From the NCBI RefSeq assembly GCF_000008625.1, contig NC_001880.1, positions 7,457 through 39,456 of the forward strand: DNA of 32,000 nt. Reading direction: 5' to 3'. Made by a program: the position numbers and the translations under genes. This stretch comes from Aquifex aeolicus VF5. Its GTDB lineage: Bacteria; Aquificota; Aquificia; Aquificales; Aquificaceae. Under the pieces are notes generated by a model. The model was not told the DNA's origin. It did not search any database and saw nothing but the letters and a program-made list of their open reading frames with translations. Numbering within the stretch: position 1 is the stretch's first letter; the number at the start of each line of letters is the position of its first letter. Of this stretch, positions 9,976 to 28,695 are shown in pieces.

Positions 9976-10155
9976 ACTATTTTCATTTTAATTTAAAAGT
10001 TATGCATTACTATGCAATTTATCTTTTATAAGCCTAGTTAATCAATGATTGCATAAGCTTTCTTAAATAAATAAAAAATAAAAGAAAGACAGGAAAAAAG
10101 AACTAATTAAGTGAAGGAGCTTACGCTCCTTAAAAAAATTAAAGGAGGTAAAGAA

Positions 10156-13109: not shown

Positions 13110-13233
13110 TTTATCATTCTCCTAAAGACTGAGAATTCCCAAACTTCATCACCAAAGAAGTTTGATATTTGAAAATCAATAGATTGGTAAATATACCTTT
13201 ATAAACATATTGAAAATCAAAGGCTTAAAGCAA

Positions 13234-13648
13234 TCATTCTATAGTTAAGGCATTTGTACACTTCTTTACTCCCTTATCAAAGGACACAACTTTGTATTTC
13301 TTAGAATACGCACAAAGAAGGCAATCTACAAAGTCTAAGTTCTTATTAGAGTATATCTTTAGAGCCTCTATAAGGAGCTCATTATCTTCAATTTTCACAT
13401 TCCTAAGTTCCAGTATGTCTATAAGTACCTGTGATATAGTAGGTCTATCAACTTTATATACTTTCTTGAAGAACATAAACAATTTCGGCTATCACTACCT
13501 GTGGGATAAAAACTTTTAGTTCTCCGGAGAGTATCTTATTAAATAACTCCTCAGCCTCTTTATACAGCTTCCTGTGGTCTTTAAGTAGATATCGCAGGAT
13601 TACATTAGCATTAACAATTATCTCTTTTTCCCCTTTCCGCGAGGCCAT
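13234..13648 (-). pseudogene. vapC: PIN-domain VapC toxin split by a frameshift (copy A)
   Basis: ORFs 13454..13648 and 13234..13482 together form one PIN domain (IIVNANVILRYLL / VIAEIVYVL / KVYKVDRPTISQVL / LDFVDCLL / VVSFDK). The frame changes in the AAGAAAG stretch. The first catalytic Asp position reads Asn. Confidence 0.75.
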
Positions 13649-13859
13649 CGCCTATTGCCTCTTTTTCAGTTTTCATTATCTCTTCTATGGACCTGTCACG
13701 GGTAGCGTATTTGTGTAGAATTCCTCCCAATTTCTTAACAGGTTTAATTATTACTTTTCCCTTCTCATAGGTTATCTCAACTATATCAGTTCCTAATAAT
13801 TTCCTGTACTCAGCAGGTATGGTAATTTGTCCTTTCTTAGTAAGCTTAGCTATTTTCAT
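13611..13859 (-). CDS. vapB: AbrB/SpoVT-type antitoxin (copy A)
   Basis: MKIAKLTKKGQITIPAEYRKLLG is a typical swapped-hairpin AbrB/MazE N-terminus. Lies upstream of, and overlaps, the PIN gene. Confidence 0.8.
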   Translation of the reverse strand: MKIAKLTKKGQITIPAEYRKLLGTDIVEITYEKGKVIIKPVKKLGGILHKYATRDRSIEEIMKTEKEAIGDGLAERGKRDNC

Positions 13860-13960
13860 TCTTACCTACCTCAATAGGTACTACTTATTGTATAAAGTAT
13901 TACTTACATTATATAGTGTTACTTTTCACAAAAATGATTACATAGTATAGGTAGTTGTGA

Positions 13961-14110
13961 TTAGCTATGCTGTTTGTTAGAGACTGCCAAGATAAGGGTG
14001 TAAGAAAATAGGTATATGGGTGTGCCTGCATACGCGTTTATCTTCATCCTTTCTTCATTCTTAAAGGCTTTTATGATTTCTTTCTGTTCTTCCGTTAGTT
14101 TTATACCCAT
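13961..14110 (-). pseudogene. N-terminal fragment of a UvrD/AAA_19-type helicase
   Basis: MGIKLTEEQKEIIKAFKNEERMKINAYAGT then unrelated sequence. The Walker A motif (AGTGKT) is broken after AGT. Confidence 0.5.
13980..14013 (+). mobile_element. IS terminus copy 5 (short)
   Basis: GAGACTGCCAAGATAAGGGTGTAAGAAAATAGGT, compared with copy 4 GAGACCGCCAAGTTAAGGGAAATAGGT. Confidence 0.5.
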
Positions 14111-14127
14111 TAGTTTTAATATAATTT

Positions 14128-14153
14128 GAGACCGCCAAGTTAAGGGAAATAGG
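14128..14153 (+). mobile_element. IS terminus copy 4 (short)
   Basis: GAGACCGCCAAGTTAAGGGAAATAGG, followed directly by TTGAAAATCAA. Confidence 0.55.
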
Positions 14154-14256
14154 TTGAAAATCAAGGGAACTGTTAATAACAGAACTTTACTGGAGTTTTA
14201 GAATCTCTTGAATATGCTTTGGCAATTATTTTATATGACATAAACTGTAAACTTCT

Positions 14257-14877
14257 CTAGTTTTCTAGGTACTCTTTTACTTTTCTTTTAAAGAATTCTT
14301 CAACTTCCTCCCAGTAAGGTTCTATATCTTCATAAACTTCTTCCCTTGCATCTTCGAAATATACGAGACTTTTTACAATAATTGAAAAGTCAATATTCCT
14401 GTACTTTTTTTTAACCAATTTTTCAAGCTCTTTTAAATCCCATCCGTGTTTTCTCATCAAAAACCACAGGTCGTAAAAATCCTTCTTTGACCCCCTTTGA
14501 GCTATTGCTACTGCCTTCATACAGGCAATATCCTTGTCCCCCGCTATGAAAATCCCAAGATCATTATTTTTTTCAGGGTTCTCTAACAGCGGGTATCGGT
14601 ATTCAAAAAAAGAGAATTTAATTCCATCAAGCAAGAATATTAGAGTATCTTTACTCTGATAAAGCCACCTTACTCTGCTTAGTTTATCAATTTGCCTTGA
14701 TATAGAGAAACTGTCAAAGGGTTTTTCAGGAAAAGTAAAAAAGTCAAAATCATCTGAAAATCTGTGCCCATATCTTATAAGCAAAGCGGTTCCTCCTGCA
14801 AGATAAAAATCGTTACAGATCCCTAAAGAAACTACTTTTTCTAAAGCCTCTCTCTGTTCTTTCTTTAACTTCCTCAT
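14257..14877 (-). CDS. AbiEii/AbiGii-like nucleotidyltransferase (DUF1814-type toxin)
   Basis: N-terminal FYLAGGTALLIRYGHRFSDDFDFF matches the family signature (GGTAL...R.S.D.DF). Confidence 0.6.
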   Translation of the reverse strand: MRKLKKEQREALEKVVSLGICNDFYLAGGTALLIRYGHRFSDDFDFFTFPEKPFDSFSISRQIDKLSRVRWLYQSKDTLIFLLDGIKFSFFEYRYPLLENPEKNNDLGIFIAGDKDIACMKAVAIAQRGSKKDFYDLWFLMRKHGWDLKELEKLVKKKYRNIDFSIIVKSLVYFEDAREEVYEDIEPYWEEVEEFFKRKVKEYLEN

Positions 14878-15061
14878 CGCTTATATTTAAAGCTAACTTC
14901 CAGAAAGCTCTATTTTTAGCGTCAAACCTATGCAGGTTTTTCAAAAATGCCTCTCTCAGTTTTTTCCTAGGATATTTTTTGAGAACTTCTTTTACGTTTC
15001 CGTAAAGCATTTCTCTTATCAAAAGTTCCCTTTCACTTTTTACCTTGTCCCAGTTAAACAT
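14813..15061 (-). CDS. Small upstream partner ORF of the AbiEii-like gene (candidate antitoxin)
   Basis: 82 aa on the same strand, overlapping the NTase start by 65 nt. No recognisable motif. Confidence 0.4.
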   Translation of the reverse strand: MFNWDKVKSERELLIREMLYGNVKEVLKKYPRKKLREAFLKNLHRFDAKNRAFWKLALNISDEEVKERTERGFRKSSFFRDL

Positions 15062-15223
15062 TTCTATCTAAAACAATTTTAAAATTTTCTAAAGCTTTCT
15101 TAGGTGTGGAGCCTACACTAAAAATCGGAGCTCCCACTACCTCAGCTCCCCAATTACTCTCTTTGTCCTTACGTAGAATTACAAGAAATTTATATTCGTA
15201 ACATATCATATATATTCAATATT

Positions 15224-15448
15224 ATGAAAAGAACGACCATTTTTATAAACGAAGAAACCAAACAAAAAATCAAACTAATAGCCAAGAAAAAGCAAAAAAG
15301 CATGGCAGAAATTATAAGAGAAGCTATAAATGAGTACATTGTAAAACACAAAAAGAATAAGAAGTATTCCTTTATAGGACTTGGTAAAAGCAAAAGATCT
15401 GATATCTCGGAAATTCATGAGGAAAAACTTTGGAAATACTCACAGTAG
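15224..15448 (+). CDS. Ribbon-helix-helix (CopG/VapB-type) antitoxin, with no toxin gene downstream
   Basis: MKRTTIFINEETKQKIKLIAKKKQKSMAEIIREAINEYI is a canonical RHH pattern. Only about 80 bp of non-coding DNA follows. Confidence 0.65.
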   Translation: MKRTTIFINEETKQKIKLIAKKKQKSMAEIIREAINEYIVKHKKNKKYSFIGLGKSKRSDISEIHEEKLWKYSQ

Positions 15449-15527
15449 ATAGGAGAGGTTTTTTGGGAATTAAAATTGGAAGAAGAAATCTGATGCTTTT
15501 ACCATAACAACTCAATTTCTTCGTTAT

Positions 15528-15635
15528 TTATCCTTGCTTTTCAGTTTCCTGCTTATTAACAAGCCAAACTATTACGAGACCAACTGTCAATATCCCAAGA
15601 CCTATAAGAATAAAACCTACGGTGTAGCTATCCAT
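15528..15635 (-). CDS. 35 aa single-TM peptide (cassette B), paralog of 7100..7207
   Basis: MDSYTVGFILIGLGILTVGLVIVWLVNKQETEKQG, with an 8-nt overlap with the upstream gene as in cassette A. Confidence 0.5.
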   Translation of the reverse strand: MDSYTVGFILIGLGILTVGLVIVWLVNKQETEKQG

Positions 15636-15831
15636 CTTCACTTCCCTTATTAACAAAGTAAACTCCCAGCAAAAAGAAGGCGAGCCAAAATCCAAAAACA
15701 AGCAATAAGTAAAATAAGTTCGCCTTATGCTTTTGAAATAATGGAGCAACCAAGCCAACTGAAAGGAAAACTGTGGCAACTGTGAGAAAGCGCTTTCCTA
15801 TTTCCTTAAGTGTTTCCCTTTTCAACCTCAA
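15628..15831 (-). CDS. 67 aa two-TM membrane protein (cassette B), paralog of 6904..7107
   Basis: Same length, same TTG start and the same MRLKRETLKE N-terminus. Confidence 0.6.
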   Translation of the reverse strand: MRLKRETLKEIGKRFLTVATVFLSVGLVAPLFQKHKANLFYLLLVFGFWLAFFLLGVYFVNKGSEDG

Positions 15832-15855
15832 AAGATTTCCTCTCCTTCTTTTACT

Positions 15856-15972
15856 TCACTTAGCTTTTGGCTTTTTACCCTCTTCCAAAGTCATCTTAAG
15901 CATCATAACCACTATAAAGAGAAGAATTCCCCATAGGGCGACAGCTCCCAAGAAGGCAATCACATCATACAT
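15856..15972 (-). CDS. 38 aa single-TM peptide (cassette B), paralog of 6768..6884
   Basis: MYDVIAFLGAVALWGILLFIVVMMLKMTLEEGKKPKAK, with AAGGAGG before the ATG. Confidence 0.55.
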   Translation of the reverse strand: MYDVIAFLGAVALWGILLFIVVMMLKMTLEEGKKPKAK

Positions 15973-16000
15973 TTTTCTCCTCCTTGCTCTTTTCTAATCT

Positions 16001-16190
16001 CTAAAGTTCCTCAAGAAGATCAAGTATTTTCCTGTAAGTAACAATCGTAAAAAGGACAAATCCGAGTGTTAGCGATGAGCCCGCAAAAAGCAAGAAAACC
16101 TTTAGCAAGCTATCAAGCTTTAACAACAGCCCTATATTTCCACCGCCGAAAGTTAATGATAGCTTTAAAATTGGTGAAGGAATTCCAAAC
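16001..16190 (-). pseudogene. 5'-truncated paralog of 12840..13109 (cassette B)
   Basis: The reverse complement aligns at DNA level with 6575-6740. It is truncated at the same point (ATTTTAAAGCTATCATTAAC). Confidence 0.55.
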
Positions 16191-16194
16191 TTAC

Positions 16195-16753
16195 GACATA
16201 CAAATTCAAGTTTATATTTCTTTTTGTATCTCCTTCTGAAAGGAATTGTAGTAAATCTATGTGGAAAGTTCTATCCTTTAAAAACTTCATTGGAATGTCT
16301 ATGTCGTGAAGTATAGATCTTATTTTCATTATGTATCCATCAAATTTATATCCGTTGTAGCTAACAATTCTATCAGCTTTTATTATTTCTTCCCAGAATT
16401 TTTGTATGAGGATTTTTCCTTTTCTTCAAGCTCTTCATAAATAAAGTCGGAACTTATCGGTTCAAAGAAAACTTCTACAGTCTTATTCTTACCACATGGG
16501 ATTAGTTTTTTTGTCGTTCTGGTTTGTTTGATCGGAAAGATATACTACTTTTCCTTCTTTTATTATCACTATCTTCTATAAGTACCGTTGAGAAAGATAC
16601 TAAAATAAGCGTGAAGGGATTAAAAGAAAATTCTCGTTCAATATCTTCCTGTGTTTTTTCCCTTTTGCCCCGCTTCTGAATGTATAAATAGTCATCGTAA
16701 GTAATATTCCTTTTATCAGGAACTGTTTCTATATCAAAAACTATAACTTTCAC
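16195..16753 (-). pseudogene. PolB-exonuclease-like 3'-5' exonuclease (COG3298-type), multiply frameshifted and 3'-truncated
   Basis: 16502..16753 starts MKVIVFDIETVP (ExoI DxE motif). Further pieces IVIIKEGKVVYL, ILIQKFWEEIIKADRIVSYNGYKFDGYIMKIRS and FHIDLLQFL lie in other frames. Confidence 0.65.
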
Positions 16754-16790
16754 CTTCTTCCTCCTTCTTTTATTATATTTTTAACCAGTT

Positions 16791-17339
16791 TCAGCGTTTA
16801 CTTATTCTTATAACGGAAAACAGAGAGGTGAAAATATTTCTCTTTTCACTTACCCCTATAGTTTTTAAAAACTCCTCTTTTAGAATGAGATAACTGTCCT
16901 GTAAAAATCCATTATCAAATTCTTCAAGCGGTGTGAGATAACCCGCATCTTTTATCTGGACTTTATAACAAGGGACAAGTTTCTTTTGATCCTGTTTGTG
17001 ATAATAACGGACCTCTTCAAATTTTTCGGGAGAGGTAAGGTAGAGTTTCTTCCATCCTTTGAGCATAGCCCTTTCAAAGTTCCCGTAATAATTTTCGGGA
17101 ACGGGAATTCCCTCGTTAAGTAGAAAGTCTCTTGAAAAGTAAAGAGGATCTTCTTCTTTTAACTCAATCTTTTCAGGATTAACACATTTTAAAAACTTCA
17201 GAAAGAGAGAATTGTTTGCTTTTCCTAAAAGTTTATTTACGCTCTTTTTTGAAGAAATCTGAACCTCAAAAGGCAAGAAACACGCTCTCCTGAAAATCTG
17301 CCTTTCTCCCGTAAGATCAAAAAGATTACTGGTTAACAT
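16791..17339 (-). CDS. Hypothetical protein, last intact gene of the nuclease/ATPase island
   Basis: ORF 16791..17372. The ATG at 17339 follows AGAGGAG and leaves a 14-nt overlap with the ATPase gene. Confidence 0.5.
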   Translation of the reverse strand: MLTSNLFDLTGERQIFRRACFLPFEVQISSKKSVNKLLGKANNSLFLKFLKCVNPEKIELKEEDPLYFSRDFLLNEGIPVPENYYGNFERAMLKGWKKLYLTSPEKFEEVRYYHKQDQKKLVPCYKVQIKDAGYLTPLEEFDNGFLQDSYLILKEEFLKTIGVSEKRNIFTSLFSVIRISKR

Positions 17340-18105
17340 AGCTCCTCTTTTTACTCCCGAGTCTCCACTCAATTCCTTTAGCTTTTAGCTTTGAACCAAG
17401 TGCTCTTTTATCCCTGAGATGTTCTGGTGGAACTTCGTCAATAAGAACAGGCATTCTGTTATCTATGTAAAGAATTGCCTCAAAAGTATTTGCCTTGCTG
17501 TTTCTGGTTTCCTTTAATTTTCCGTAGTAAATTTTTTCTGTCCCCAGAAGTTTTGCTATGAAATTAAGAAGCGTAGTTTTTCCGGCCTTAGGAGTACCTA
17601 TTAAAAGGGAAAATACGGGAAATTTATTTATATCCTTCATTAACTCAGTTGCTTTTTCCCTGACTTCCTTGAGAAATACAGAATAAAAAGAAAATATAAT
17701 AGCCTCTCCGGTTAAAAATCTGTGTTCCTCACTCGTTTCTGTGGAAAGTTCTATATAATCCTTTATCGCAATTACAGTTTTCTTTACAGATTCCTCGGGA
17801 ATAGAAATCTCAACAACGGATTTTCCATTATAAAAAATTTCTCCATCGCAAACCGCTACGTTTACTTTTTCATCTTTATCTTCCCTTTTATTCTTCAAGA
17901 TTTCCTGAATCTTTTGAGGAGATATTAGTATTTCCTTCTTCTTTTCCGCAAGCTTCTGAAACATTTCTGCGCTTTCTTCAACCGCTTTTTTTCTGACAAG
18001 AGACTTCTGAGCTTCGTTAAAAATGGGACTGTTAATCACTTTAGTATAGTAGTAATTGAGAACAACATTTTTTACTTTTTCGTTTTTCTCAAATTCCTTT
18101 ATCAC
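17326..18105 (-). CDS. P-loop NTPase (possibly SF3-helicase-like)
   Basis: Walker A LLIGTPKAGKTTLLNFI and Walker B-like MPVLIDEV. GTG start; the frame stays open upstream to 18333. Confidence 0.6.
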   Translation of the reverse strand: MIKEFEKNEKVKNVVLNYYYTKVINSPIFNEAQKSLVRKKAVEESAEMFQKLAEKKKEILISPQKIQEILKNKREDKDEKVNVAVCDGEIFYNGKSVVEISIPEESVKKTVIAIKDYIELSTETSEEHRFLTGEAIIFSFYSVFLKEVREKATELMKDINKFPVFSLLIGTPKAGKTTLLNFIAKLLGTEKIYYGKLKETRNSKANTFEAILYIDNRMPVLIDEVPPEHLRDKRALGSKLKAKGIEWRLGSKKRSYVNQ

Positions 18106-18284
18106 TTCCCTTACTACTTCCGGTTCCTGAGTTTCTATAAACAGATTTAAGTGTTTTTCAATTTTCTTACTATTTTCAGATGCCTTTTTTCTTAAATCGG
18201 TGGAGCTTATTATTTTCCTTGCCCTACTTTTTACATAATTGTAATACCTTTCACATTCTTCAATTACGTTATCCTTTTCAATTA

Positions 18285-18740
18285 TTACAAAAAAAACTCT
18301 TCCTGAGGTCCCCTCCAGGCTAAAGAGGATAAATTACCACTCCCTGCTACGACAATTTTCCTTTCTTCGGATTCAAGTATGTATAACTTTGTATGACAGT
18401 TTGGAATGTAGTAAACGGAGAAATCTTTAAACATGGCTTGTTTACTTATTTCTTCTCCTTCTTTGAGGAACTTTTCCACTATAACTTCCAGGTTATAAAG
18501 TTCCCTTCCTTGTTCTTCTAACCCTATCAGGATTTCCACTTCCCTGTAATCCTTTAAAAGATCAAGGATACTCTTCAGAGAGGAGAAAGTTATAGCTTTT
18601 ATCCTGTTGAATTGCCTAAGGTATTTCCCTGGAATATCGTACAGGAGTTTAATTTCCTCTTCGCCTATACTAAGAATAGGCTTTTTAGTATCTTTTTCAG
18701 GTTCCTCTGAAAAAAGTTGTTTGTTCATTATACCTCCCAA
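18285..18740 (-). CDS. PLD-superfamily (HKD motif) nuclease domain protein
   Basis: C-terminal CHTKLYILESEERKIVVAGSGNLS matches HxK(x)4[D/E](x)6GSxN, with Glu at the Asp position. Confidence 0.6.
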   Translation of the reverse strand: MGGIMNKQLFSEEPEKDTKKPILSIGEEEIKLLYDIPGKYLRQFNRIKAITFSSLKSILDLLKDYREVEILIGLEEQGRELYNLEVIVEKFLKEGEEISKQAMFKDFSVYYIPNCHTKLYILESEERKIVVAGSGNLSSLAWRGPQEEFFL

Positions 18741-18878
18741 ACTACTTAAAATTTCGCATCAGATAGTGCCTATTTCAAGCTAAGTCCTATCTTTTACTAA
18801 ACTTACTTTTCTAACTTATATAAGTTATATTACTTATAAAACTAAACTTTATTTAAAGAATAAAATTCATTAGCACCC

Positions 18879-19649
18879 TTATACGACTTCTACCAGTAAA
18901 GGAAAAGGTACGCCGGTTCCGCTCACAATACCTTTACCGGTAGGTAGTTTCGGAAGAATGTTCGCTATATCACTTCCAGCAAATTCTACAAAAGTGGAAA
19001 CTGTATCAATGTCAGATGCATTTATAGTTCTAAACATAACCTGAGTGTTTAATTGAGAAAGGATATATTTGCTAACCTGTGCTGGTCTTTGCGTTATTAC
19101 CATAAGTCCTAAATTGAATTTCCTTCCCTCGGATGCTATCTTTCTGGCAAAAGTGAGAGAAAGGTTTTCTTTTCCTGCGGAGACATCCCCGAATCCCTTT
19201 TCTGGAGCAAAATTGTGCGCCTCTTCCAGAACTAAAAATCTTTTGGAAGGTTGTTTCTTATTCCTTGTAAAAAGCTCTTCCATTATCAGTCCTGCTATGT
19301 TTATTCTCGTTTGTGGATGCGTAATATTCCGGAAGTTAAAAATAATTACTCTCTTTTCACTTTCTAGTCCAGAATTTATTGCATCAAATACAGTTGTTTG
19401 GTTAGATAAACTATTTTCACCGTAAGTTTCTTTAAGGTAAGTGGTTATTTCTTGTATTTCCTTAGAACCCGCATTTAAACTTTCTATCAAATTAACAAGT
19501 GTTTTCTTAGATAAAGAAGTAAGTCTAAGAGAGGGTTTTATGTTCTGTGAAAGTTTTGATCTATTTTCCCTGGCCTGGTGTGAATTACCGCTTACCAGTG
19601 AAGGGTATCCTGCTTCTTTTATAAGTTCTTCCACTTCCTCTGGAAACAC
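18879..19649 (-). CDS. herA: HerA/FtsK-superfamily ATPase, C-terminal half (Walker B, arginine finger region)
   Basis: FLVLEEAHNFAP...EGRKFNLGLMVITQRPAQVSKYILSQLNTQVMFR is a typical HerA/DUF87 C-terminal core. In frame with 19686..20498 across one TAG. Confidence 0.75.
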   Translation of the reverse strand: MFPEEVEELIKEAGYPSLVSGNSHQARENRSKLSQNIKPSLRLTSLSKKTLVNLIESLNAGSKEIQEITTYLKETYGENSLSNQTTVFDAINSGLESEKRVIIFNFRNITHPQTRINIAGLIMEELFTRNKKQPSKRFLVLEEAHNFAPEKGFGDVSAGKENLSLTFARKIASEGRKFNLGLMVITQRPAQVSKYILSQLNTQVMFRTINASDIDTVSTFVEFAGSDIANILPKLPTGKGIVSGTGVPFPLLVEVV

Positions 19650-19685
19650 AGGGAAAATTGTATCTTCAAGTTCGATATGTTCTAT

Positions 19686-20498
19686 CTAGTTTTCATCTAT
19701 ATAACTCTTTAAATCGTTGAAGTATTCTCCGTGAGGATCAAGTACATAAACTTCAACTTCTTTATCGGATTCAAGTAAACTGGAAATAAACCTTTTTGTA
19801 AAATAGCTTTTTCCTGAACCGGTAGTACCTAGTACGAGCATGTGTTTACTTATCACCTCGTTTGCATCTACAAACACATCTATGTCAGAATTCTCAATCA
19901 CGCCAACTTTTACAGGAACTTCCATATCTCTCCCGGAAAAATTCTTCTTGAGTATTTTCCCCAGTGTTTTTTCTGATATTTTATAAACAGGTTCTCCTAC
20001 ATGGAAGGGATTTCTTAATATATCTAATTTTCCATCCTTTAGTATACCTATTACGTCCGCGGTTGCTATTTTCAGTTTATTTCCATTATTGTTGAGGTAA
20101 GCGTAAATAGCCGCCTTTTTCCATTCGTCATCTTTTCCTTTAGAAAAAATGGTTTTAAAGTCCTCTACGGGAGCAAAAACACTGGATTCCTGTGAAGTGA
20201 AGGGATTCGCAAAAAATCCCATATCGTAAGCAAAAATACTTGTTATCTTTCCGAGCACAATACCTTCCTGTAATTTCACTTCAACGTAAGAATGTAAACC
20301 TATATCATCATTGCCTACCAGAATAAACTCAAAGGATTGAGGTTTTACAGGATTTACAGTAAATCCTAAAAGATCATCTCCAAAACTTTCGGAATACTCT
20401 TCCTTAATTTTTTCAAAGTATTCACGTAGTTTTTTAATATGTTCATCACTGCCGTCCGATTCGTAATAAACTCCCGCTTCTATATTGCCCGTTGACAT
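19686..20498 (-). CDS. herA: HerA/FtsK-superfamily ATPase, N-terminal half (HAS-barrel region plus Walker A)
   Basis: HMLVLGTTGSGKSYFTKRFI...VYVLDPHGEY. Ends at TAG 19686-19688, which is in frame with the downstream half. Confidence 0.75.
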   Translation of the reverse strand: MSTGNIEAGVYYESDGSDEHIKKLREYFEKIKEEYSESFGDDLLGFTVNPVKPQSFEFILVGNDDIGLHSYVEVKLQEGIVLGKITSIFAYDMGFFANPFTSQESSVFAPVEDFKTIFSKGKDDEWKKAAIYAYLNNNGNKLKIATADVIGILKDGKLDILRNPFHVGEPVYKISEKTLGKILKKNFSGRDMEVPVKVGVIENSDIDVFVDANEVISKHMLVLGTTGSGKSYFTKRFISSLLESDKEVEVYVLDPHGEYFNDLKSYIDEN

Positions 20499-20499
20499 A

Positions 20500-20835
20500 T
20501 CAGATAATCCTGCATCCGGTAAAGTTCGCCGAACCTACGACTGCCCTTTTATTATCAACGATTATGAATTTTGCATGTAGCCTGTTACACAGGTAAATTT
20601 TTCCATTTATATCTTTAATATTTCTAAATACTCTGTCATTAGTTATGAGAAAATCCCTAAGTTCTGATGCTCTCAATATTATTTCAGGAGAAATATTTTT
20701 ACTCTTTGCTATATTCAGGATTTCTTCAAATATACTCCCTTTTATCCATGCGGATGCGATTTTTATGCTTTCCTTAGCTTCTTTTGTTATTTCTAAGATT
20801 TTCTTATATATTTCCTAGCTCGTCAGGATTTCCAT
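20500..20835 (-). pseudogene. Small Nuc-like PLD-family nuclease with in-frame TAG at codon 7
   Basis: GGAGGG, then ATG at 20835, MEILTS, TAG 20815-20817, then EIYKKILEITKEAKESIKIASAWI...NRLHAKFIIVDNKRAVVGSANFTGCRII. This is a perfect HxK(x)4D(x)6GSxN motif. The stop lies 1 nt before the herA ATG. Absent from the ORF track. Confidence 0.7.
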
Positions 20836-20948
20836 ATATTCTCCCTCCACTTCGGCTAATATAATATTTAATCTTATTCAGCATTGTATCAACAGGCTAT
20901 CAATGAAGTAATAAAATCTAAAGGAAATTTTCAGAGAACAAGCAAAAT

Positions 20949-21539
20949 TTATATCTTAAAAAGATAATAGTAATAAGTGAGTTGAAAGTTCTGCACTCCA
21001 TGCCTACTTCTGTAAAGTAATCCATGACAAAGGATACTTAAACTGTTATTTTTGTCATTTTCCATAAATTTGCTGAGTCGTTTAATTGTCTGAGTGTATG
21101 CTGATCTTGAAATGTATAAATTAATTGATAATAAAAATTTGTTTTGGACTTCGTCAAGTTCTCTTAGTTTGCATACATCTTCCCTCAACCACGAAAAATT
21201 ATTATCAATAATAGTTTTCACTTCCATAACTTCAATCACAGTTCCATCGTCTTTTTTTACAAGTGAAAAATCCGGTTGCTTGTTTGATTCTAATTTTGTT
21301 TTTGTCAGAGTTTCAGCTATACCGAGTTCTAAATTATTTGGTAAATTTCTTATATTTCTTATAAATTTTTCTGCCAAATACGTTACCATCGCCTGTTCAA
21401 ATCCGTAATCGTTCTTACGAAAATGTTTCCGATTTTCTTTCATTTTGTACAGATTTATTTGTGCAACTTCATCCAATATATGCTTAAAATAGTCAGGCAG
21501 ATTTTCAAGCGCTTCACAAGTCCAACTATCAAAATACAT
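20949..21539 (-). CDS. Putative PD-(D/E)xK-fold nuclease
   Basis: 196 aa. QPDFSLVKKDDGTVIEVMEVKT fits a D...(E)xK arrangement. By-eye call only. Confidence 0.4.
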   Translation of the reverse strand: MYFDSWTCEALENLPDYFKHILDEVAQINLYKMKENRKHFRKNDYGFEQAMVTYLAEKFIRNIRNLPNNLELGIAETLTKTKLESNKQPDFSLVKKDDGTVIEVMEVKTIIDNNFSWLREDVCKLRELDEVQNKFLLSINLYISRSAYTQTIKRLSKFMENDKNNSLSILCHGLLYRSRHGVQNFQLTYYYYLFKI

Positions 21540-21622
21540 AATTCATATAAAGATTATACGTATGAGCATCAAAAAAATATCGCTTTCAAAAAGCTGAAGC
21601 TGCGAAGGATAGAAACTAAACG

Positions 21623-21862
21623 TTAGATAACATAGTTCTGTAAAGTATTTTTCAATATCGTAAGAACTTTTTTCTCTTCCTTTGAAAGCCCTTCTAAAAA
21701 TTTTTTGCCTTCGAGGAATTCCTTTATAGGAAGAAAGTAAGTTCCATCTCTTCTTTCAATTCTAATTGCTCTAACAGGTTGATCTACGATAGAAATAATT
21801 GAATTTTTTAGCTTAATCTCCTTAAAAAGAAAAGGAGTTATGCATTTTCTACTTGACCTCAT
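21623..21862 (-). CDS. Hypothetical protein downstream of HTH paralog B
   Basis: 79 aa ORF on the same strand, 11 nt after 21874..22092. Confidence 0.4.
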   Translation of the reverse strand: MRSSRKCITPFLFKEIKLKNSIISIVDQPVRAIRIERRDGTYFLPIKEFLEGKKFLEGLSKEEKKVLTILKNTLQNYVI

Positions 21863-21873
21863 AGCTATTAAGT

Positions 21874-22092
21874 TTAGACGGAGAGCTCCTGAACAAGAAA
21901 ATCTACCACTTCCGGTTTGAAGTAGTAGTAATTAACAAGTCCTCTTCTCTTTATCCTTACCAATTCACCGGGAATGAAGCCTCTCTTTACATAACGGATT
22001 AAAGTTCTATCGCTTATCTCTATACCTCTTTCTTTAAGTTCTCTTAGAACCTGCGTACTCGTAAGATATCCCTGAATTCTTATTGCCGGCAT
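21874..22092 (-). CDS. Small excisionase/MerR-like HTH DNA-binding protein, paralog B
   Basis: 72 aa. RGFIPGELVRIKRRGLVNYYYFKPEVVDFLVQELS parallels 613..834. Confidence 0.7.
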   Translation of the reverse strand: MPAIRIQGYLTSTQVLRELKERGIEISDRTLIRYVKRGFIPGELVRIKRRGLVNYYYFKPEVVDFLVQELSV

Positions 22093-22149
22093 TTACATTA
22101 AGATAATAAGCTCTAAAGCCTTCCTTTTCAAGGAAAAAATAGAATTAGA

Positions 22150-22493
22150 GTTCTCCTATATATAGGAGAACTACTTTGAGCTCGCTAAAAATCAAGTCTC
22201 AGACACACCACTTGAACTCCGGAAGTTCTCCTAGCTATAGGAGAACCGCTACTTAACTTATTGATTTTCAAGCACTTTCTGTTTAGTTCTCCTAGAAACA
22301 TTTATATCTTTTTCCATATACAAAAGCTTTTTGTTATTGGAGAAGTAATAAGTTATATAGGAGAACTCTCCTTTCAAGTTTTTGATTTTCAATATAGTTC
22401 TCCTATATATAGGAGAACTTTTGTGATTTTTTCTATTCTGTAATGCCCGATTTTTAGTTTGGTCATAAGTGGTTCTCCTAGAACTAGGAGAAC
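22150..22493. repeat. Palindrome (iteron/operator) array, family 2: GTTCTCCTA-N4-TAGGAGAAC
   Basis: 22-bp palindromes at 22150-22171, 22225-22246, 22397-22418 and 22472-22493. A split palindrome has half-sites at 22286-22295 and 22358-22366. Confidence 0.9.
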
Positions 22494-22552
22494 CGACAAA
22501 GCAAAAAAATAGATAAAATCGAGGAATGCGACACTAAAATAGTTTTTAGGAC

Positions 22553-23509
22553 ATGCTTGAAGTTGAAAAAAAGATAAAACAAAAGCTGGGGATAGATGAA
22601 ACAGAGGTCCTGAGCTCCCTAACGAGCTACCGGAAAAAAGGCAAAACCTACTATAAAATTGTAACATACGATTCAAAAACGAAACAATCTAGGAGATACC
22701 ATGTGCCCAGAATGTTCGAAGAGGAGATTTTAGCTCTCTGGAAGCAGCGGCAGAAGTACATTGAAGAAGAAAGGGAACTTGAAAGGGAAGTAAAAAGCCT
22801 CTTAAAAAAATACGGGGATGCAGAAAAGATAAAGGAAATTCTGGAAAAAGTAGCAGGAGAAAGTTTTGATAAAGCTGTTTCCTCTTACGCAATTAAGACT
22901 TACACGAATAAGGCAAAGGAACTCTTTAAGAGTTTTAAAGAAGACCTTATAAAGCTTTACAGGGAGGGAGTTTTAAAAAGGCTTTCAGTTTTGCAGGTCC
23001 TTTACCTTCTTGCAAATTTGAAGGAGATTTCCGAAGATACGGAAAGAGGAAGTTACTTTTTCAAGAAAGGACTGAACACGATAATAAAAGTAGCAAAAAA
23101 CGAACGTATCCCAAATCCTTTCGGAACACTTAAAAACGACTTTTTCCTTTCGGGAAAGCAGACCCCTTATGACTTTCTCCTTTCGAATTTTCTTGAAGAG
23201 CTTATAGGAGAAACTCTAGGAGAACTCCTTGAAAAGGAAATTGAGAAATTAGTAGCGGAAGAAAAAGCAAAAGAAATCGAGGGAAAAGTAAAGAAGTTAA
23301 AGGAAATTGTTTCATGGTTTGAAACCCTTCCCTACGAAATAAAACAGATTGCAAAAGAAGTAATTTCTGACAATGTTCTGGATATTGCAGAAAAGTTCTA
23401 CAAGGATATGAAAGAATGCAATTACTCTCTTGATGAAGCAAAAGCATTTTTAACAAGTTCTCCTAGAGATAACCTGGTGAATTACATGCAATACCTTAAG
23501 TCTATATGA
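22553..23509 (+). CDS. 318 aa charged, helical protein, paralog B; candidate replication or iteron-associated protein
   Basis: Same length and shared motifs with 1329..2285. Confidence 0.75.
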   Translation: MLEVEKKIKQKLGIDETEVLSSLTSYRKKGKTYYKIVTYDSKTKQSRRYHVPRMFEEEILALWKQRQKYIEEERELEREVKSLLKKYGDAEKIKEILEKVAGESFDKAVSSYAIKTYTNKAKELFKSFKEDLIKLYREGVLKRLSVLQVLYLLANLKEISEDTERGSYFFKKGLNTIIKVAKNERIPNPFGTLKNDFFLSGKQTPYDFLLSNFLEELIGETLGELLEKEIEKLVAEEKAKEIEGKVKKLKEIVSWFETLPYEIKQIAKEVISDNVLDIAEKFYKDMKECNYSLDEAKAFLTSSPRDNLVNYMQYLKSI

Positions 23510-23514
23510 AAGTC

Positions 23515-23718
23515 TTACGCATTCTCTGAGAGTATTTCCGTTATAAGATCCTTCAACGTTTTCCCTTCCTTTAATGCCCTCATTTTAAGAGAAAACCACA
23601 CATCATAAGGAAGCTCTATCAGAAGTTTCTTAACCTGTGGTTTTTCTTCCCCTTCTTTTATCTTTGCAGAAGCTATAAATTCCTCGGGTTTTTTTGAAGG
23701 TTTCTTCGGTATAGCCAT
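23515..23718 (-). CDS. Small RHH centromere-binding partition protein (ParG-like)
   Basis: 67 aa directly downstream of parA. KKLLIELPYDVWFSLKMRALKEGKTLKDLITEIL fits an RHH with a basic flexible N-terminus. Confidence 0.6.
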   Translation of the reverse strand: MAIPKKPSKKPEEFIASAKIKEGEEKPQVKKLLIELPYDVWFSLKMRALKEGKTLKDLITEILSENA

Positions 23719-23748
23719 TATGTAACCTCCTTTATTTAAATTACTAAG

Positions 23749-24390
23749 TTAAGCAATATTAATTATATTACTAATTTCATTTATTAAGCTTTCAAGCTCC
23801 TCTATTGCTTTTTTATCGTTCATTTCAAGCACTCCCTTTCCTTCTTTTACAGAGTTTCTGTAAACTACTCTTGAGTGCAATCTTGAATTTAATACTCCTA
23901 CGGAGTACTGCTGTGCTAATTCTCTCAGGGTTTCCTCAGCTTCTTTCACGATGTTAGACTTTATTACTTGATTAAACAGTATATAAGCCGGGATATCTGC
24001 AAAGGTCCTTGCTTCTTGCAGAACCTTCAGGGTATCTTCTGTTGCCCATACATCGTAAACACTTGGGAGAACAGGTATTATCAAAGCTCCGTTTGATGCT
24101 GCAAGAATCGCGCTTCTGAAAACTGCACTATCTCTTCCCCCTACGTCGATAACTACAACATCAAAATTTTCAAAACCCTTAATGTCTTTGTGAATTGTGG
24201 GCTTTGTAATACCTATTGCTTTAATGTCGTCTTTTTCCCTGAGTGCCCTGAAGTTCAAACTACTTTCCTGGATATCCGCATCAATAAGTAGAACACTTTT
24301 TCCTCTGAGAGAATATCCTACGGCTAAATTACACGCAACAGTACTTTTCCCTACTCCTCCCTTCTGATTACCTACCACGATTACTTTCAT
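23749..24390 (-). CDS. parA: ParA/Soj-family partition ATPase (type Ib size)
   Basis: Deviant Walker A MKVIVVGNQKGGVGKST, then VLLIDADIQ; 213 aa. Confidence 0.9.
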   Translation of the reverse strand: MKVIVVGNQKGGVGKSTVACNLAVGYSLRGKSVLLIDADIQESSLNFRALREKDDIKAIGITKPTIHKDIKGFENFDVVVIDVGGRDSAVFRSAILAASNGALIIPVLPSVYDVWATEDTLKVLQEARTFADIPAYILFNQVIKSNIVKEAEETLRELAQQYSVGVLNSRLHSRVVYRNSVKEGKGVLEMNDKKAIEELESLINEISNIINIA

Positions 24391-24399
24391 AATGTTATT

Positions 24400-24575
24400 T
24401 ATTTTAGCAATATTTATTAGATAAGTTAGCTAACTAAAACTGATTTCAATATTTGATTATATAGATATGCCGCTTTCTATCTTTGCTTATCTAACTTATG
24501 TTGTTTAACTAATAATGATAACTTTTATTACAAAGTTTACTAACCTTAGTTAGTTACTAAAAAGCTTGAAACATT
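24400..24575. promoter_or_regulatory. Putative par promoter/centromere region with TAACTAA / ATAAGTTAG repeats
   Basis: Immediately upstream of parA. Contains AGATAAGTTAGCTAACTAA, CTTATCTAACTTATG and CCTTAGTTAGTTACTAA. Its core (24470-24560) is repeated in inverted orientation at 8854-8943. Confidence 0.55.
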
Positions 24576-24907
24576 ATGGTAAATACTTTATCAATAAAAC
24601 ATATGTTTATGAGAATATTTAAAAAGAAGATAATCAAAACGCTTTTAGGCCATATTTTAGTAAGGAGAAAGAAGAGGAAAAACCTTACGGATTTGGTAGG
24701 GGCTATTAAAGGAGGAGATAGCTTTAACGCAGTTGAGGATAAGCATAAATTATATCAAGTTTGCTAGACAAATAGCTTTAGTGGTAACGGTTGTAGGCTT
24801 TGCGTGGTGGTACATGAGAACGATTCTAAAAAATTTTTGTTAAGTTTTTTTAGAAACTCAATAATATCTTTTTCTTCTCCCGCAGAAACTTCAAAACTTT
24901 TTAGAGG

Positions 24908-25096
24908 GTTCTCATACTTATTATGTTGTCATTGAATGTGTATAAAGATTTAGGGTTTACATTAGTACCTATATTAATGTATGAGAGCTTTATTAGAAAG
25001 CCTTGAAAACAGGTAAGGTTCTCATACCTATGGGAAAACTCTAAAAAATGTGAAATTCTTGAAAATCAAAATGGTTCTCATACTTATATGAGAATC
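24908..25096. repeat. Palindrome array, family 3: GTTCTCATA-N4-TATGAGAAC (partly degenerate)
   Basis: Best copy 25074-25096 (GTTCTCATACTTATATGAGAATC). Weaker copies at 24908-24930 and 25018-25039. A right half-site TATGAGAGC at 24979-24987. Confidence 0.7.
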
Positions 25097-25176
25097 TTCA
25101 AAAAACTCATTTTTTTGAGGAATTGTTAACCTCGGTTTACAACTTTTTATTTTTCTTCCGTGTAAACCTTTCTTAA

Positions 25177-25614
25177 TCAAGTTTCAGAAAAGGGATTAAG
25201 GAGTCTAACTTTTTTGTTAAAAAGTTCCACCTCTTTATAAGGAGTGTCTTCACTAAGAACAATGGGGATGTTGTTATTAAGAGCGGAAGCTATTATTACT
25301 GCATCCCAAAATTGAAGGTAATATCTCTCTCTGAGAAAAATAGCAACTCTTAAGTCTTCACAATCTTCGTAAAGGATGTTGAACATTTTACTGATTCCCT
25401 TGATAATGCTATCTACTTCTTCGAAAGGTAAGCTATACTTTTCATGAGATATTCTGGCAAGTTCCTTGCATACTTGCGAGCTTATGTAAATTTTCCATCC
25501 ATTATGCAATAGACCACTTATGTATTCCTGCAAAAATTTCTGTTTTATTTCATCTTTATCAATCCCGAAAAAATAGCCGAGCAAATTTGTATCTATTAAA
25601 ACTTCCTTCTTCAT
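25177..25614 (-). CDS. PIN-domain ribonuclease (VapC-like), with no adjacent antitoxin ORF
   Basis: MKKEVLIDTNLL..., CKEL, FWDAVIIASAL and VLSED give the acidic PIN quartet pattern. Confidence 0.75.
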   Translation of the reverse strand: MKKEVLIDTNLLGYFFGIDKDEIKQKFLQEYISGLLHNGWKIYISSQVCKELARISHEKYSLPFEEVDSIIKGISKMFNILYEDCEDLRVAIFLRERYYLQFWDAVIIASALNNNIPIVLSEDTPYKEVELFNKKVRLLNPFSET

Positions 25615-25753
25615 GATACTCTTAACCTAAACTTTCCCTAAATTTAAGTCAAGTGTGTATAAAATCCGTGATTTACCAGCCTAATCATTATATCAATTAT
25701 AAGTTGACAGGTAGGTAAACTGACATAGTATTTATTAGAGGAGGTTTAGAAAA

Positions 25754-26194
25754 ATGGCTTTTCATATCCTACCTACTTTTGAGAGAGGAAATGAGAAAGG
25801 AGCTGTTATAGGGCGTGTAAAACACAGAAGGGAAAATCCATTAGAATACGAAATAAAGGTAGTAAAAAAAGGAAGTGTAAAAGTTTTTGTAGGAAATAAG
25901 GGAGTATTTGTTATAGAGGACGATTTAGCAAAAGAGATTATAAAAGCGTTATGGGAAAAATACGTCAGGGAAACCTACGGAAGAAGGAAGCCAAAAACGA
26001 ATAAGGAAATAGTAGAACATCCGATAGAAGTGAGAGAAAGTTTTCTTATAAATTTCTTTAAAGAGAAAGGTTTTATCACTTCATTTAAGTCCTGTATGTA
26101 TCTTATAGAAGGAACCAGTTCAGATGAATCAACTATTAAAGACTTAATACTTTTAACGAAAAAGATTAAAGAAAAGGTAACGAAAACAACATGA
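25754..26194 (+). CDS. Hypothetical protein
   Basis: 146 aa ORF with GAGGAGG before the ATG. Divergent from the PIN gene. Confidence 0.5.
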   Translation: MAFHILPTFERGNEKGAVIGRVKHRRENPLEYEIKVVKKGSVKVFVGNKGVFVIEDDLAKEIIKALWEKYVRETYGRRKPKTNKEIVEHPIEVRESFLINFFKEKGFITSFKSCMYLIEGTSSDESTIKDLILLTKKIKEKVTKTT

Positions 26195-26435
26195 AGTCAA
26201 CAAGCTCATACTAAAGGTGCAAACTTGAATCTGGAAGATTTTACTAATGGGAGAAAGTGTCGCTTCCGTTGTAAATGAACCTTTACAACTTCGCTTCTTA
26301 GTTCTCCTGAATTCGGGATAATTTTTGTTGTCCTAGTTCTTTTGTTAACATTTTTCCCAAGGGAAGTTTAAATCACCGTATCAGCTTATTAGGTATCTTG
26401 AATTTCAATCAGTTACGATTAACTTAAAAGATACG

Positions 26436-27398
26436 ATGACGTATCAAAACGGTGTTGAAGTTTTACTTGAGGAATTTCTTGATTATCTAACAAAGGAAGA
26501 AACCATATGCTCGCTGGAAATAGAAAAGTTAAAAGTTTCTATAGACGAACTTGAGAAAGAAACTGATGAGCCGAGAGTACTTCAAGGGATAAACTATTTC
26601 AGAACCGCAAAAGAAGTTTACCAACTTTCACGGAAAGCATATGAAACAAAAGAGGAAGTGGTCTCTGAAGCTTTAATACTATGGATTTATGAAAACCTAT
26701 GGAAAGGATTTAATGTTCCCAAGGGATATAGAAAAAGTGATATGGTTATTTTCGGTGCAAAATTTAGTCCTCCACCACCATATGTTGTTCCGAACCTTAT
26801 AAGAACAATAGTAAACTGGCTAAGGAATGAGAAAACAATAGATGTAGTTAAGAAATCTATTATTTTCCACACGCTATTTGAAGTTATACATCCGTTTCCT
26901 GACGGCAACGGAAGAGTGGGAAGAATACTTTTGAATGCAATCCTCGTAGAAAACGGACTCTTAAATGTTGCTTTTAGAAATAGAGAGAAATATATCTCCG
27001 CCTTGAGAGAAGCTGAAGAGGGAGCTATAGTAGTTGTTGAAAAACTATCAAGAGGAAGAAAAATAGATTATTCATCTATTACAGAAACTGTAGAGTATTA
27101 CGGAAACTTAAATGTTTTTGATGAACTAATAAGAACCGAGATGATGCACAGCTTGAAGGTATACTCAAATATAAAGCAAGTTTTCTTAACTCCAGAGGAG
27201 GCAGCAAAACTTTTAGGTTTAAAGAATAAGGATTACGTAAGAGTTCTAATCCACAGAGGAAAACTAAAAGCAGTTAAGGAAGAAGGTAAGTGGAAGATAC
27301 CTCTTTCTGAAGTTGTAAAGAACTTTGAACACAAACTGAAAGGAGAAGAATTCAAACTTGCCAATAATTTGTTCAAAGGTAAACTTAGTCCTTCTTAA
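26436..27398 (+). CDS. Fic-domain protein with C-terminal excisionase-type HTH
   Basis: Fic motif HPFPDGNGRVGR. C-terminal LTPEEAAKLLGLKNKDYVRVLIHRGKLKAVKEEGKWKIPLSEVV resembles HTH_17/excisionase domains. Confidence 0.85.
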   Translation: MTYQNGVEVLLEEFLDYLTKEETICSLEIEKLKVSIDELEKETDEPRVLQGINYFRTAKEVYQLSRKAYETKEEVVSEALILWIYENLWKGFNVPKGYRKSDMVIFGAKFSPPPPYVVPNLIRTIVNWLRNEKTIDVVKKSIIFHTLFEVIHPFPDGNGRVGRILLNAILVENGLLNVAFRNREKYISALREAEEGAIVVVEKLSRGRKIDYSSITETVEYYGNLNVFDELIRTEMMHSLKVYSNIKQVFLTPEEAAKLLGLKNKDYVRVLIHRGKLKAVKEEGKWKIPLSEVVKNFEHKLKGEEFKLANNLFKGKLSPS

Positions 27399-27438
27399 TT
27401 CCCGACAAAGTTGCTCTATCAGAAAGTTTTACCAGAAA

Positions 27439-27490
27439 GTCCTATATATAGGACAACTTTTCTACAGAGTTCTCATATCGGTATGAGAAC
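27439..27490. repeat. Two palindromes: GTCCTATATATAGGAC and a perfect family-3 site GTTCTCATATCGGTATGAGAAC
   Basis: 27439-27454 and 27469-27490, read directly from the sequence. Confidence 0.85.
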
Positions 27491-28686: not shown

Positions 28687-28695
28687 AGGTATAAG

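Follow-up and report, generated by a model that had tools for sequence, protein, structure and literature searches.

Do the nuclease and ATPase open reading frames (ORFs) packed along the minus strand of plasmid ece1 of Aquifex aeolicus VF5 make up one co-operating system, or are they independent genes that lie side by side? The plasmid is 39,456 bp in total, and we analysed a window of 32,000 nucleotides from it (NC_001880.1, positions 7,457 to 39,456; the coordinates below are those of the window). A preliminary description had listed seven consecutive genes here: a PD-(D/E)xK protein, a small Nuc-like PLD nuclease, HerA, a second PLD protein, a P-loop ATPase, a 182-amino-acid (aa) protein and a PolB-type exonuclease. 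That gene count was not borne out. Because intact orthologues align colinearly across the fragments, the interval holds four genes: aq_aa32, the only one of the four that is intact; a PLD–HerA fusion gene in three fragments; a second fusion gene, also in three, that joins another PLD domain to the ATPase of the Aq_aa27 family (PLD–aa27); and an exonuclease gene in at least four (Table 1). We consider it likely that these are four independent cistrons and not a seven-gene system, and our best reading of the locus is a graveyard of independent, stand-alone nuclease–motor defence genes.

Seven open reading frames, four genes

Exact look-ups assigned the ORFs between 16791 and 21539 to aq_aa26, aq_aa27, aq_aa28, AAC07972, aq_aa31 and aq_aa32. 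A six-frame translation recovered all of the previously listed pieces on the minus strand, including the 196-aa ORF and the 182/193-aa ORF, together with the motifs LHAKFIIVD…GSANFT, CHTKLYILE…GSGNLS, GTPKAGKT, VFDIET and YNGYKFD; HerA came out in two pieces. The domains thus lie where the preliminary description had placed them, with profile scores far beyond chance, and profile hidden Markov model searches upheld its PLD and HerA assignments. Its calls of a second PLD domain, a P-loop ATPase and a PolB-like exonuclease also stood, and the PD-(D/E)xK call is plausible with moderate support. Each of the four genes has its own Shine-Dalgarno sequence, wherever one was readable. A promoter and terminator scan of 15.9–22.3 kb returned 15 promoter-like sites against 18.9 expected and 5 terminator-like sites against 4.0 expected, counts that are no better than chance and therefore uninformative on transcription units. 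PLSDB, from which relatives of ece1 are absent, contained no match to the region (megablast) or to the exonuclease (tblastn).

In public annotation, the PLD–HerA gene appears as three parts: a PLD piece without annotation, aq_aa31 and AAC07972. Its PLD domain (PLD1) matches the Pfam families PLDc_2 (E=1.9e-10, 41.2 bits) and PLDc (E=4.5e-9, 36.4 bits), both over cut-off, and its HerA part matches DUF87 (E=8.4e-21, 75.5 bits) and HAS-barrel (E=1.3e-11, 44.9 bits), both over the gathering score; PADLOC HerA models match this part as well, down to 5.8e-27. The motif LHAKFIIVD...GSANFT, followed past a frameshift by GNIEAG, places PLD1 in the PLD/HKD superfamily, and conserved GTTGSGKS, VLEEAH and EGRKF motifs place the rest among the HerA/FtsK-type ATPases. 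Splicing the frames and reading through the two in-frame TAG codons gave a repaired query of 651 aa, which found 164 homologues at E<=1e-5, the best of them at 67% identity. Nearly all of the 120 homologues listed are ~630–690 aa long, have PLDc_2 as well as DUF87 and align over ~97–100% of the query, in most cases 100%; the exceptions are a few short or incomplete entries. Intact full-length homologues number more than 100, from at least 115 clusters, and come mostly from thermophiles, with sources that include Aquifex pyrophilus, Desulfurobacterium, Thermovibrio, Hippea, Thermotogae, Kryptonium, Pyrinomonadaceae, Pyrococcus yayanosii and Thermococcus. The catalytic residues, including the PLD motif, are invariant in 32 diverse homologues, and there is one HKD motif per chain; in the A. 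pyrophilus orthologue the HKD histidine is H88 and the Walker A lysine K342.

These homologues change the meaning of the junction between the PLD and herA frames. The stop codon of the PLD ORF does fall 1 nt ahead of the herA ATG (TGAtATG), an arrangement that had been taken for translational coupling of HerA with a separate small HKD partner. Judged by the more than 100 intact proteins of ~650 aa, the PLD is instead the N-terminal domain of the HerA chain; the apparent stop/ATG junction is therefore a 1-nt insertion, a frameshift within one gene (lesion 2 in Table 1). The PLD frame terminates in GSANFTGCRII(stop), and the herA frame upstream of the annotated ATG reads …DAGLSDMSTGNIEAGVYYESD, which supplies the missing C-terminal half of the PLD domain. 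The A. pyrophilus orthologue, a 650-aa protein colinear across the window frames, runs through the junction as GSANLTDAGLSDVSSGNIEAG, where the window has GSANFT in one frame and DAGLSDMSTGNIEAG in the next. At the third lesion, IDEN(stop)IEHIE aligns with IEEEKIENIV of A. pyrophilus, which fits a change of AAG to TAG. The Shine-Dalgarno sequence GGAGGGAG lies upstream of the PLD–HerA ATG at 20835.

The second unit follows after a 138-bp gap, as previously reported, and it too had been divided, into genes for a PLD domain, a P-loop ATPase and a 182-aa protein. It is one gene: the 650-aa A. pyrophilus orthologue P0148 is colinear with three window frames (18683–18291, 18291–17374 and 17384–16851), and aq_aa28, aq_aa27 and aq_aa26 together read as a single gene broken twice. 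Removing one copy of the AAGCTAA duplication yields LGSKLKELSGDSGVKRGAMLTSNL, which matches LGDRLKYLGDSPEVKGTAILTSNL in A. pyrophilus. The domain order is an NgoFVII-like PLD nuclease, a helical linker, a P-loop ATPase resembling D5 and other superfamily 3 (SF3) helicases (Pfam Aq_aa27), and a C-terminal domain. An initial homologue search was swamped by K/E-rich words (9 distant hits), and a profile search recovered the close relatives. The match of the second PLD fragment (PLD2) to PLDc_2 is weak, at only 19.7 bits against a cut-off of 27 (7.8e-4), and its membership of the PLD/HKD superfamily is given by H114, K116, G132, S133, N135 and E147, invariant in 31 sequences. Across the family alignments, the H-x-K, GSxN and E of the nuclease and the Walker A GxxxxGK, Walker B D, sensor-like N and RR pair of the ATPase are invariant, the ATPase residues being G380, G385, K386, D433, N468 and R481.

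An AlphaFold2 model of PLD–aa27 (predicted local distance difference test, pLDDT, 77.5) was compared with known structures using Foldseek. The N-terminal domain matched R.NgoAVII, Nuc, Zucchini and NucT at probability 1.00, and also Tdp1. The ATPase matched E5 of monkeypox virus (MPXV), vaccinia D5, the large T antigens of JC virus (JCV) and simian virus 40 (SV40), PriRep1 and Cch at E of about 1e-4 to 1e-3, and 74 viral D5/DUF927-type primase-helicases matched the model at E<=1e-3. From its best matches, the ATPase is predicted to be of the SF3 type and D5-like. At the sequence level, Pfam DUF927 and DUF5906 match the protein sub-threshold only, and a sequence-profile search of the PDB returned only NucT, at E=0.18.

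The exonuclease gene contains at least three frameshifts, located by an A7 run (16506-16512) and, by two A5 runs, around 16408-16421 and 16214-16229; its 3' end is uncertain. A fragment matches DNA_pol_B_exo2 at 33.4 bits (E=4.7e-8) and the repaired translation at 39.5 bits (E=6.6e-10), against a cut-off of 24. The ExoI motif FDIET and the ExoII motif YNGYKFD are readable, the 3' part is scrambled, and the ExoIII motif was not located.

The intact gene, aq_aa32, has no Pfam, NCBIfam or PADLOC match, and a profile search of the PDB returned only spurious NTPDase matches (~0.05). Its family is tiny, with 7 representatives among 1.84 billion clusters, in which E48, E76, D90 (within PDF) and E106-x-K108 are invariant. 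The AlphaFold2 model (pLDDT 88.9) has an alpha-beta-beta-beta-alpha-beta core, with D90, E106 and K108 at or in strands 91-95 and 101-111, and in Foldseek it resembled BstEII (E=4.4e-3) and the protein 3ijm, which has a restriction endonuclease (REase)-like fold (probability 1.00, TM-score 0.48), only weakly. A PD-(D/E)xK fold is our best guess from this model. The closest relative of aq_aa32 (63% identity) is encoded among the housekeeping genes mscS, fabH, plsX, rpmF and dnaX.

Table 1. Genes and lesions of the ece1 locus, and surroundings of intact PLD–HerA homologues (coordinates refer to the window, and for L059 to its contig)
Feature	Coordinates	Strand	Description
aq_aa32	20949..21539	-	Intact 196-aa gene; small PD-(D/E)xK-like protein
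PLD–HerA pseudogene	18879..20835	-	~651 aa when repaired; PLD/HKD nuclease, HAS-barrel, HerA/FtsK-type ATPase
PLD–HerA lesion 1	20815..20817	-	In-frame TAG at codon 7; orthologues have N/D/E there
PLD–HerA lesion 2	20516..20519	-	1-nt insertion in CCGG, which parts the PLD motif into its GSANFT and DAGLSD..GNIEAG halves
PLD–HerA lesion 3	19686..19688	-	In-frame TAG separating aq_aa31 from AAC07972
PLD–aa27 pseudogene	16791..18728	-	~645 aa when repaired; annotated as aq_aa28, aq_aa27, aq_aa26
PLD–aa27 lesion 1	18289..18296	-	T8 homopolymer; a ninth T would restore ...QEEFFFVIIEKD...
PLD–aa27 lesion 2	17378..17391	-	7-bp tandem duplication (AAGCTAA x2); +1 frameshift upstream of the sensor-N/RR motifs
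Exonuclease pseudogene	16004..16753	-	PolB-exonuclease-like 3'-5' exonuclease (DNA_pol_B_exo2 / RNase_H_2); at least 4 fragments
PLD–HerA locus L053			N6_N4 methylase 19 bp downstream
PLD–HerA locus L056			N6 methylase and Piwi protein (prokaryotic Argonaute, pAgo)
PLD–HerA locus L059 (metagenome contig Ga0256838_1000026)	7129-11920		Three consecutive RAMP genes, the last ending exactly at the PLD–HerA start
PLD–HerA locus L057			McrB-like AAA_5 and WYL/WCX regulator
PLD–HerA locus L009 (P. yayanosii)			AbiEii, ScoMcrA_N, integrase
PLD–HerA locus L007 (Hippea)			UvrD/PDDEXK, PARG, WapI, GIY-YIG, insertion sequence (IS) elements
PLD–HerA loci L005, L055			Housekeeping genes

Lesions, decay and linkage

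The preliminary description had suspected that several of these genes carry inactivating lesions, and an independent assembly confirms it. Errors in the 1998 genome sequence or its assembly, with the genes intact in the organism, might be suggested by the Sanger-era origin of the sequence and by the several lesions at homopolymers; we give this explanation next to no chance, as the Logan assembly of run ERR15087784 carries every lesion. It covers window positions 13668–29617 (15,950 bp) at 99.987% identity with 0 gaps, and its only differences are substitutions at 25529, in the PIN gene, and at 19316, in the dead HerA region, none of them at a lesion. A third run, SRR29904083, has identical ORF spacing. 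Taken at the level of sequence, ece1 carries two dead fusion genes and a dead exonuclease gene. The fusion genes were inactivated by a pair of in-frame TAG codons, an insertion of 1 nt, slippage in a homopolymer and the duplication of 7 bp, and this inactivation was probably recent, because the repaired PLD–HerA retains all 79 positions that are invariant in its family (and 49 of the 51 near-invariant ones). The same retention of every invariant residue might speak for genes kept alive by recoding or phase variation, with slippage at T8 and A7 and read-through of TAG making a switchable contingency locus. Two of the frameshifts do lie in homopolymers (T8 and A7), and both in-frame stops in PLD–HerA are TAG. 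We nevertheless hold this to be extremely improbable. Slippage is not a credible rescue, since every gene bears a further lesion where slippage could not repair it: the 1-nt insertion in CCGG, the 7-bp duplication, and the shifts at short A5 runs. Moreover, 0 of >100 homologues requires recoding, the T8 run is identical, without gaps, in the independent assembly, and, with ~3 disabling hits in each gene, recent neutral decay could still leave 79/79 positions unchanged (a rough estimate, with p about 0.1).

Could the ORFs nonetheless have belonged to one system before they decayed? A 34-kb plasmid-like contig of A. pyrophilus carries both fusion genes intact and adjacent, 8 bp apart; it also has ParA, PIN toxin-antitoxins, an integrase and an N6 methylase. 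Elsewhere the association is lost, with no partner within 8–10 kb. Homologues of aa27, aa32 and the exonuclease are missing from some nine further loci that encode a full-length PLD–HerA (flanks of 6–10 kb), a tblastn search of 40 genome loci of the distant PLD–aa27 branch found no PLD–HerA, and the gene tables of the P0122 locus (L011, a distant homologue) and of the P0150 and P0152 loci (closer relatives) include no HerA/DUF87 gene. All-against-all BLAST of the neighbours of PLD–HerA found no recurrent partner, only sporadic GATase_4 and GGACT. That the ORFs are co-directional and tightly packed in ece1, and that the fusion genes are neighbours on the A. pyrophilus contig too, is what favours a single operon-like defence or plasmid-competition system, with a small HKD nuclease coupled to HerA and a second unit alongside. 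We judge such a system very unlikely: in intact homologues the nuclease and HerA form a single polypeptide, the second unit is one gene, the fusion genes are convergent in A. pyrophilus and do not co-occur in the other loci examined, and neither aa32 nor the exonuclease is linked to them in those loci. The preliminary description had itself proposed a search for conserved adjacency in other genomes as a check; the adjacency proved to be confined to the Aquifex lineage, to two plasmids in which the relative orientation of the genes is opposite, and this essentially contradicts the claim of a system. That the two fusion genes adjoin reflects the plasmid backbone of Aquifex and not a conserved system.

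The plasmid setting, among toxin-antitoxin, Abi and Fic genes, had been correctly described. The A. pyrophilus contig encodes homologues of two ORFs beside the island, of 79 and 72 aa (21623-22092), and of ParA (23749-24390), with identities of 61%, 37% and 74%, which suggests a plasmid backbone shared between the two Aquifex species. A 755-bp inverted repeat (13139-13892 and 30662-31416, 96.3% identity) flanks a segment of ~16.8 kb that holds the whole island together with AbiEii, an RHH gene, ParA, PIN, Fic-HTH and, close to the inner edge of the right arm, a DDE_Tnp_1 transposase (29616-30581); the independent Logan contig ends at these repeats. The bracketed segment could be a composite-transposon-like or invertible module. 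Three ORFs of 318 aa without a Pfam match (1329-2285 on the plus strand, 9019-9975 on the minus strand and 22553-23509 on the plus strand) each adjoin a ParA-like 213-aa ORF or a copy of it (10111-10752 on the plus strand, 23749-24390 on the minus strand), with no DNA-level repeat detected by blastn; these pairs may be diverged, duplicated replication or partition modules of ece1. Finally, the AbiEii-like ORF at 14257-15061 (206 aa) aligns with no more than a portion of the Pfam profile (238 positions, best stretch 12-61), and an 82-aa ORF in another frame overlaps its 5' end; this gene may be split or decayed too.

Relation of the fusion proteins to known systems

PLD–HerA resembles HerA–NurA in combining a HerA translocase that bears a HAS-barrel with a nuclease placed at that barrel, in this case directly N-terminal to it. 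The nuclease of PLD–HerA is, however, of the PLD/HKD type and covalently fused, whereas NurA is a separate subunit. No nurA, mre11 or rad50 occurs in the PLD–HerA loci examined, and the NCBIfam model helicase_HerA scores 108 bits against a cut-off of 970. With SIR2–HerA (Nezha) and DUF4297–HerA (Hailibu), PLD–HerA shares the pairing of HerA with a toxic or nucleolytic effector, defence-island-like neighbourhoods and matches to PADLOC HerA models, but those are two-gene systems with a SIR2 or DUF4297 effector, whereas here the effector is a PLD domain of the same chain. Neither a SIR2 nor a DUF4297 gene adjoins HerA in the window or at the loci of its homologues, and the NCBIfam anti-phage HerA models score 112 bits (HerA_antiphage) and 97 bits against cut-offs of 800 and 850.

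A nuclease and HerA in one polypeptide have been described in DndH, an REase–HerA protein of the 'HerA/FtsK capture systems' for which a counter-invader role was proposed; exonuclease–HerA fusions and D5-type SF3 helicases also occur in such systems, and the HKD nucleases reported there are fused to SF2 helicases only, none to HerA (PMC10853773). DndH is a multidomain protein of ~1,700 aa with a nuclease of the REase fold and acts with DndF and DndG; PLD–HerA, in contrast, is a compact, stand-alone, HKD-bearing protein of 650 aa. The searchable literature yielded no description of a PLD–HerA or HKD–HerA fusion, and a brief mention in the 2004 FtsK–HerA survey is possible. In our best reading, PLD–HerA represents a new version, in one chain, of the pairing of HerA with a nuclease.

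On the nuclease side, the best domain-level matches of PLD1 are DrmC in PADLOC (5.7e-10) and NucT and DrmC in NCBIfam. Like these proteins and Nuc, it has a single HKD per chain, implying an active site formed by dimerisation; unlike it, they are free-standing proteins of ~150–250 aa, and DrmC is part of the DISARM operon. No DrmA or DrmB match was found in the nine pieces scanned, the locus also lacks DrmMI, and DrmC_I scores 43 bits against a cut-off of 133. PLD–aa27, for its part, joins an NgoFVII-like PLD to an NTPase motor and resembles in this the PLD-type restriction enzymes and PLD–helicase defence proteins (R.NgoAVII/NgoFVII, BfiI, SauUSI, Mokosh MkoB/C, Azaca ZacB and PbeA), but its motor is predicted to be D5/DUF927-like and of the SF3 type and not an SF2/SF1 helicase. 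No B3-like or DUF3427 specificity domain was detected in PLD–aa27, and its match to the PADLOC ZacB domain is weak (6.8e-4). Its ATPase module is similar at the fold level to D5/E5, large T antigen, PriRep1 and Cch, and its motifs run in the order Walker A, Walker B, sensor-like Asn and Arg pair. Those proteins carry an N-terminal primase, origin-binding or polymerase domain and replicate mobile elements; PLD–aa27, by comparison with such viral and plasmid SF3 helicases, carries an N-terminal nuclease, and its gene is dispensable for ece1. A keyword search of the literature (PLD, SF3/D5 helicase, defence islands) found no paper on a PLD–SF3 fusion. PLD nucleases have been reported in defence systems of the nuclease–NTPase kind (bioRxiv 10.1101/2025.07.10.664194), and both of our fusion proteins fit that theme as well as the HerA/FtsK capture theme (PMC10853773).

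Neighbourhoods and proposed role of the intact homologues

The preliminary description had proposed a defence or plasmid-competition role. The neighbourhoods of intact homologues make such a role plausible for the fusion proteins, and it is the locus as one such system that falls away. Intact PLD–HerA genes lie beside methylases, a pAgo, RAMP genes, McrB-like and AbiEii genes and other nucleases (Table 1). At L059, PLD–HerA seems to be the last gene in an operon for a type III CRISPR-Cas effector. In three mutually unrelated loci (L009:11307-12610, L055:3050-3445 and L057:7927-8712), PLD–HerA has GATase_4 and/or GGACT (gamma-glutamyl cyclotransferase-like) genes within a few kb, and P. yayanosii also has an ADP-ribosylglycohydrolase there. 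Near PLD–aa27, a SauUSI-like protein of ~1,050 aa (PLDc_2/RE_NgoFVII, ResIII, Helicase_C and DUF3427) is encoded in 8 of the 44 loci, at a median distance of ~300 bp (for example L051:4504-7659 and seven others of the L013–L052 set), so that two different PLD-motor enzymes stand side by side. Other neighbours of PLD–aa27 are an SLFN-g3 helicase, SNF2/HEPN, type III restriction-modification (R-M) genes, NERD, PDDEXK_3, Zeta, Fic and AbiEii. Most homologues are on large contigs of chromosomal origin, where no integrase or replication module recurs.

We infer that intact PLD–HerA and PLD–aa27 each unite nuclease and motor in one self-contained enzyme and belong to the nuclease–NTPase type of defence. 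In Nuc-type domains with a single HKD, the active site arises on dimerisation, HerA is a hexameric DNA pump, and NurA docks on the HAS-barrel face of HerA. In PLD–HerA, the HerA module would form a hexameric ring that pumps DNA with ATP, and the single-HKD domains, N-terminal to the HAS-barrel and hence at the NurA-docking face, would pair into three Nuc-like composite sites. We propose this hexamer with three PLD dimers because of the biology of Nuc and HerA; capping the ring, the dimers would cut the DNA as it is threaded, making PLD–HerA a one-polypeptide analogue of HerA–NurA, DUF4297–HerA or DndH. In PLD–aa27, an NgoAVII/Nuc-like PLD nuclease may be driven or gated by the predicted D5-type ring ATPase. 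Our confidence is evenly balanced on the full proposal: that PLD–HerA is an undescribed single-chain immune effector of thermophilic bacteria and archaea, which would capture and shred foreign DNA alone or as an accessory of type III CRISPR, R-M or pAgo loci; that PLD–aa27, widespread in the Clostridia and Kiritimatiellia of the gut, is a second stand-alone defence family of nuclease–motor proteins and unrelated to the first; and that the ece1 copies are recently silenced relics of both.

Several observations weigh against this proposal. The neighbourhood evidence comes from ~10 loci, a small and non-random sample, and some PLD–HerA loci (L005 and L055) have housekeeping surroundings. No PADLOC system model or NCBIfam equivalog was matched above cut-off by any of the proteins. 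The E-values for the D5/SF3 fold are modest (1e-4 to 1e-7), and the whole-chain TM-scores are low, because the query is multi-domain. A housekeeping role, in the plasmid or in DNA metabolism, is the main alternative, and the surroundings of those PLD–HerA loci speak for it. PLD–D5/SF3 would then be a Rep-like initiator, in which the PLD nicks via a phosphohistidine intermediate and an SF3 helicase follows, analogous to HUH–SF3 Rep proteins, and PLD–HerA would be an end-resection, resolution or partition enzyme like HerA–NurA. D5/SF3 helicases are hallmarks of virus and plasmid replication (PMC10853773), in A. pyrophilus parA and a small gene immediately precede the PLD–aa27 gene on its strand, and the NCBIfam HerA model for double-strand break repair scores about equal to the anti-phage HerA models. 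Even so, we find a housekeeping role unlikely. Most homologues are chromosomal singletons without a recurrent mobile-element module, and no NurA, Mre11 or Rad50 is encoded in any neighbourhood examined. Although ece1 has only dead copies of the two genes, it persists and turned up again when sequenced independently, so that neither gene can be essential for replicating or partitioning it, and an essential Rep or partition role on ece1 is rejected on this ground.

For annotation, six 'uncharacterised proteins' of ece1 (aq_aa26, aa27, aa28, aa31, AAC07972 and the unannotated PLD piece) are fragments of two genes. Databases list fragments from 16791-20498 as separate proteins, for example UniProt YZ26_AQUAE and YZ28_AQUAE, and the Pfam family PF27394, 'Aq_aa27', takes its name from a pseudogene fragment; the entries deserve merging and flagging. 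Because the copy in the window is dead, the locus itself is neither a functioning nor a new multi-gene system. What it brings to recognition are two compact, uncharacterised nuclease–motor architectures, PLD–HerA and PLD–D5/SF3-like ATPase, each with many intact members that are mostly in defence-type neighbourhoods. As single-gene, thermostable proteins, they would be convenient for the biochemistry and cryo-electron microscopy of a ring translocase that feeds a nuclease.

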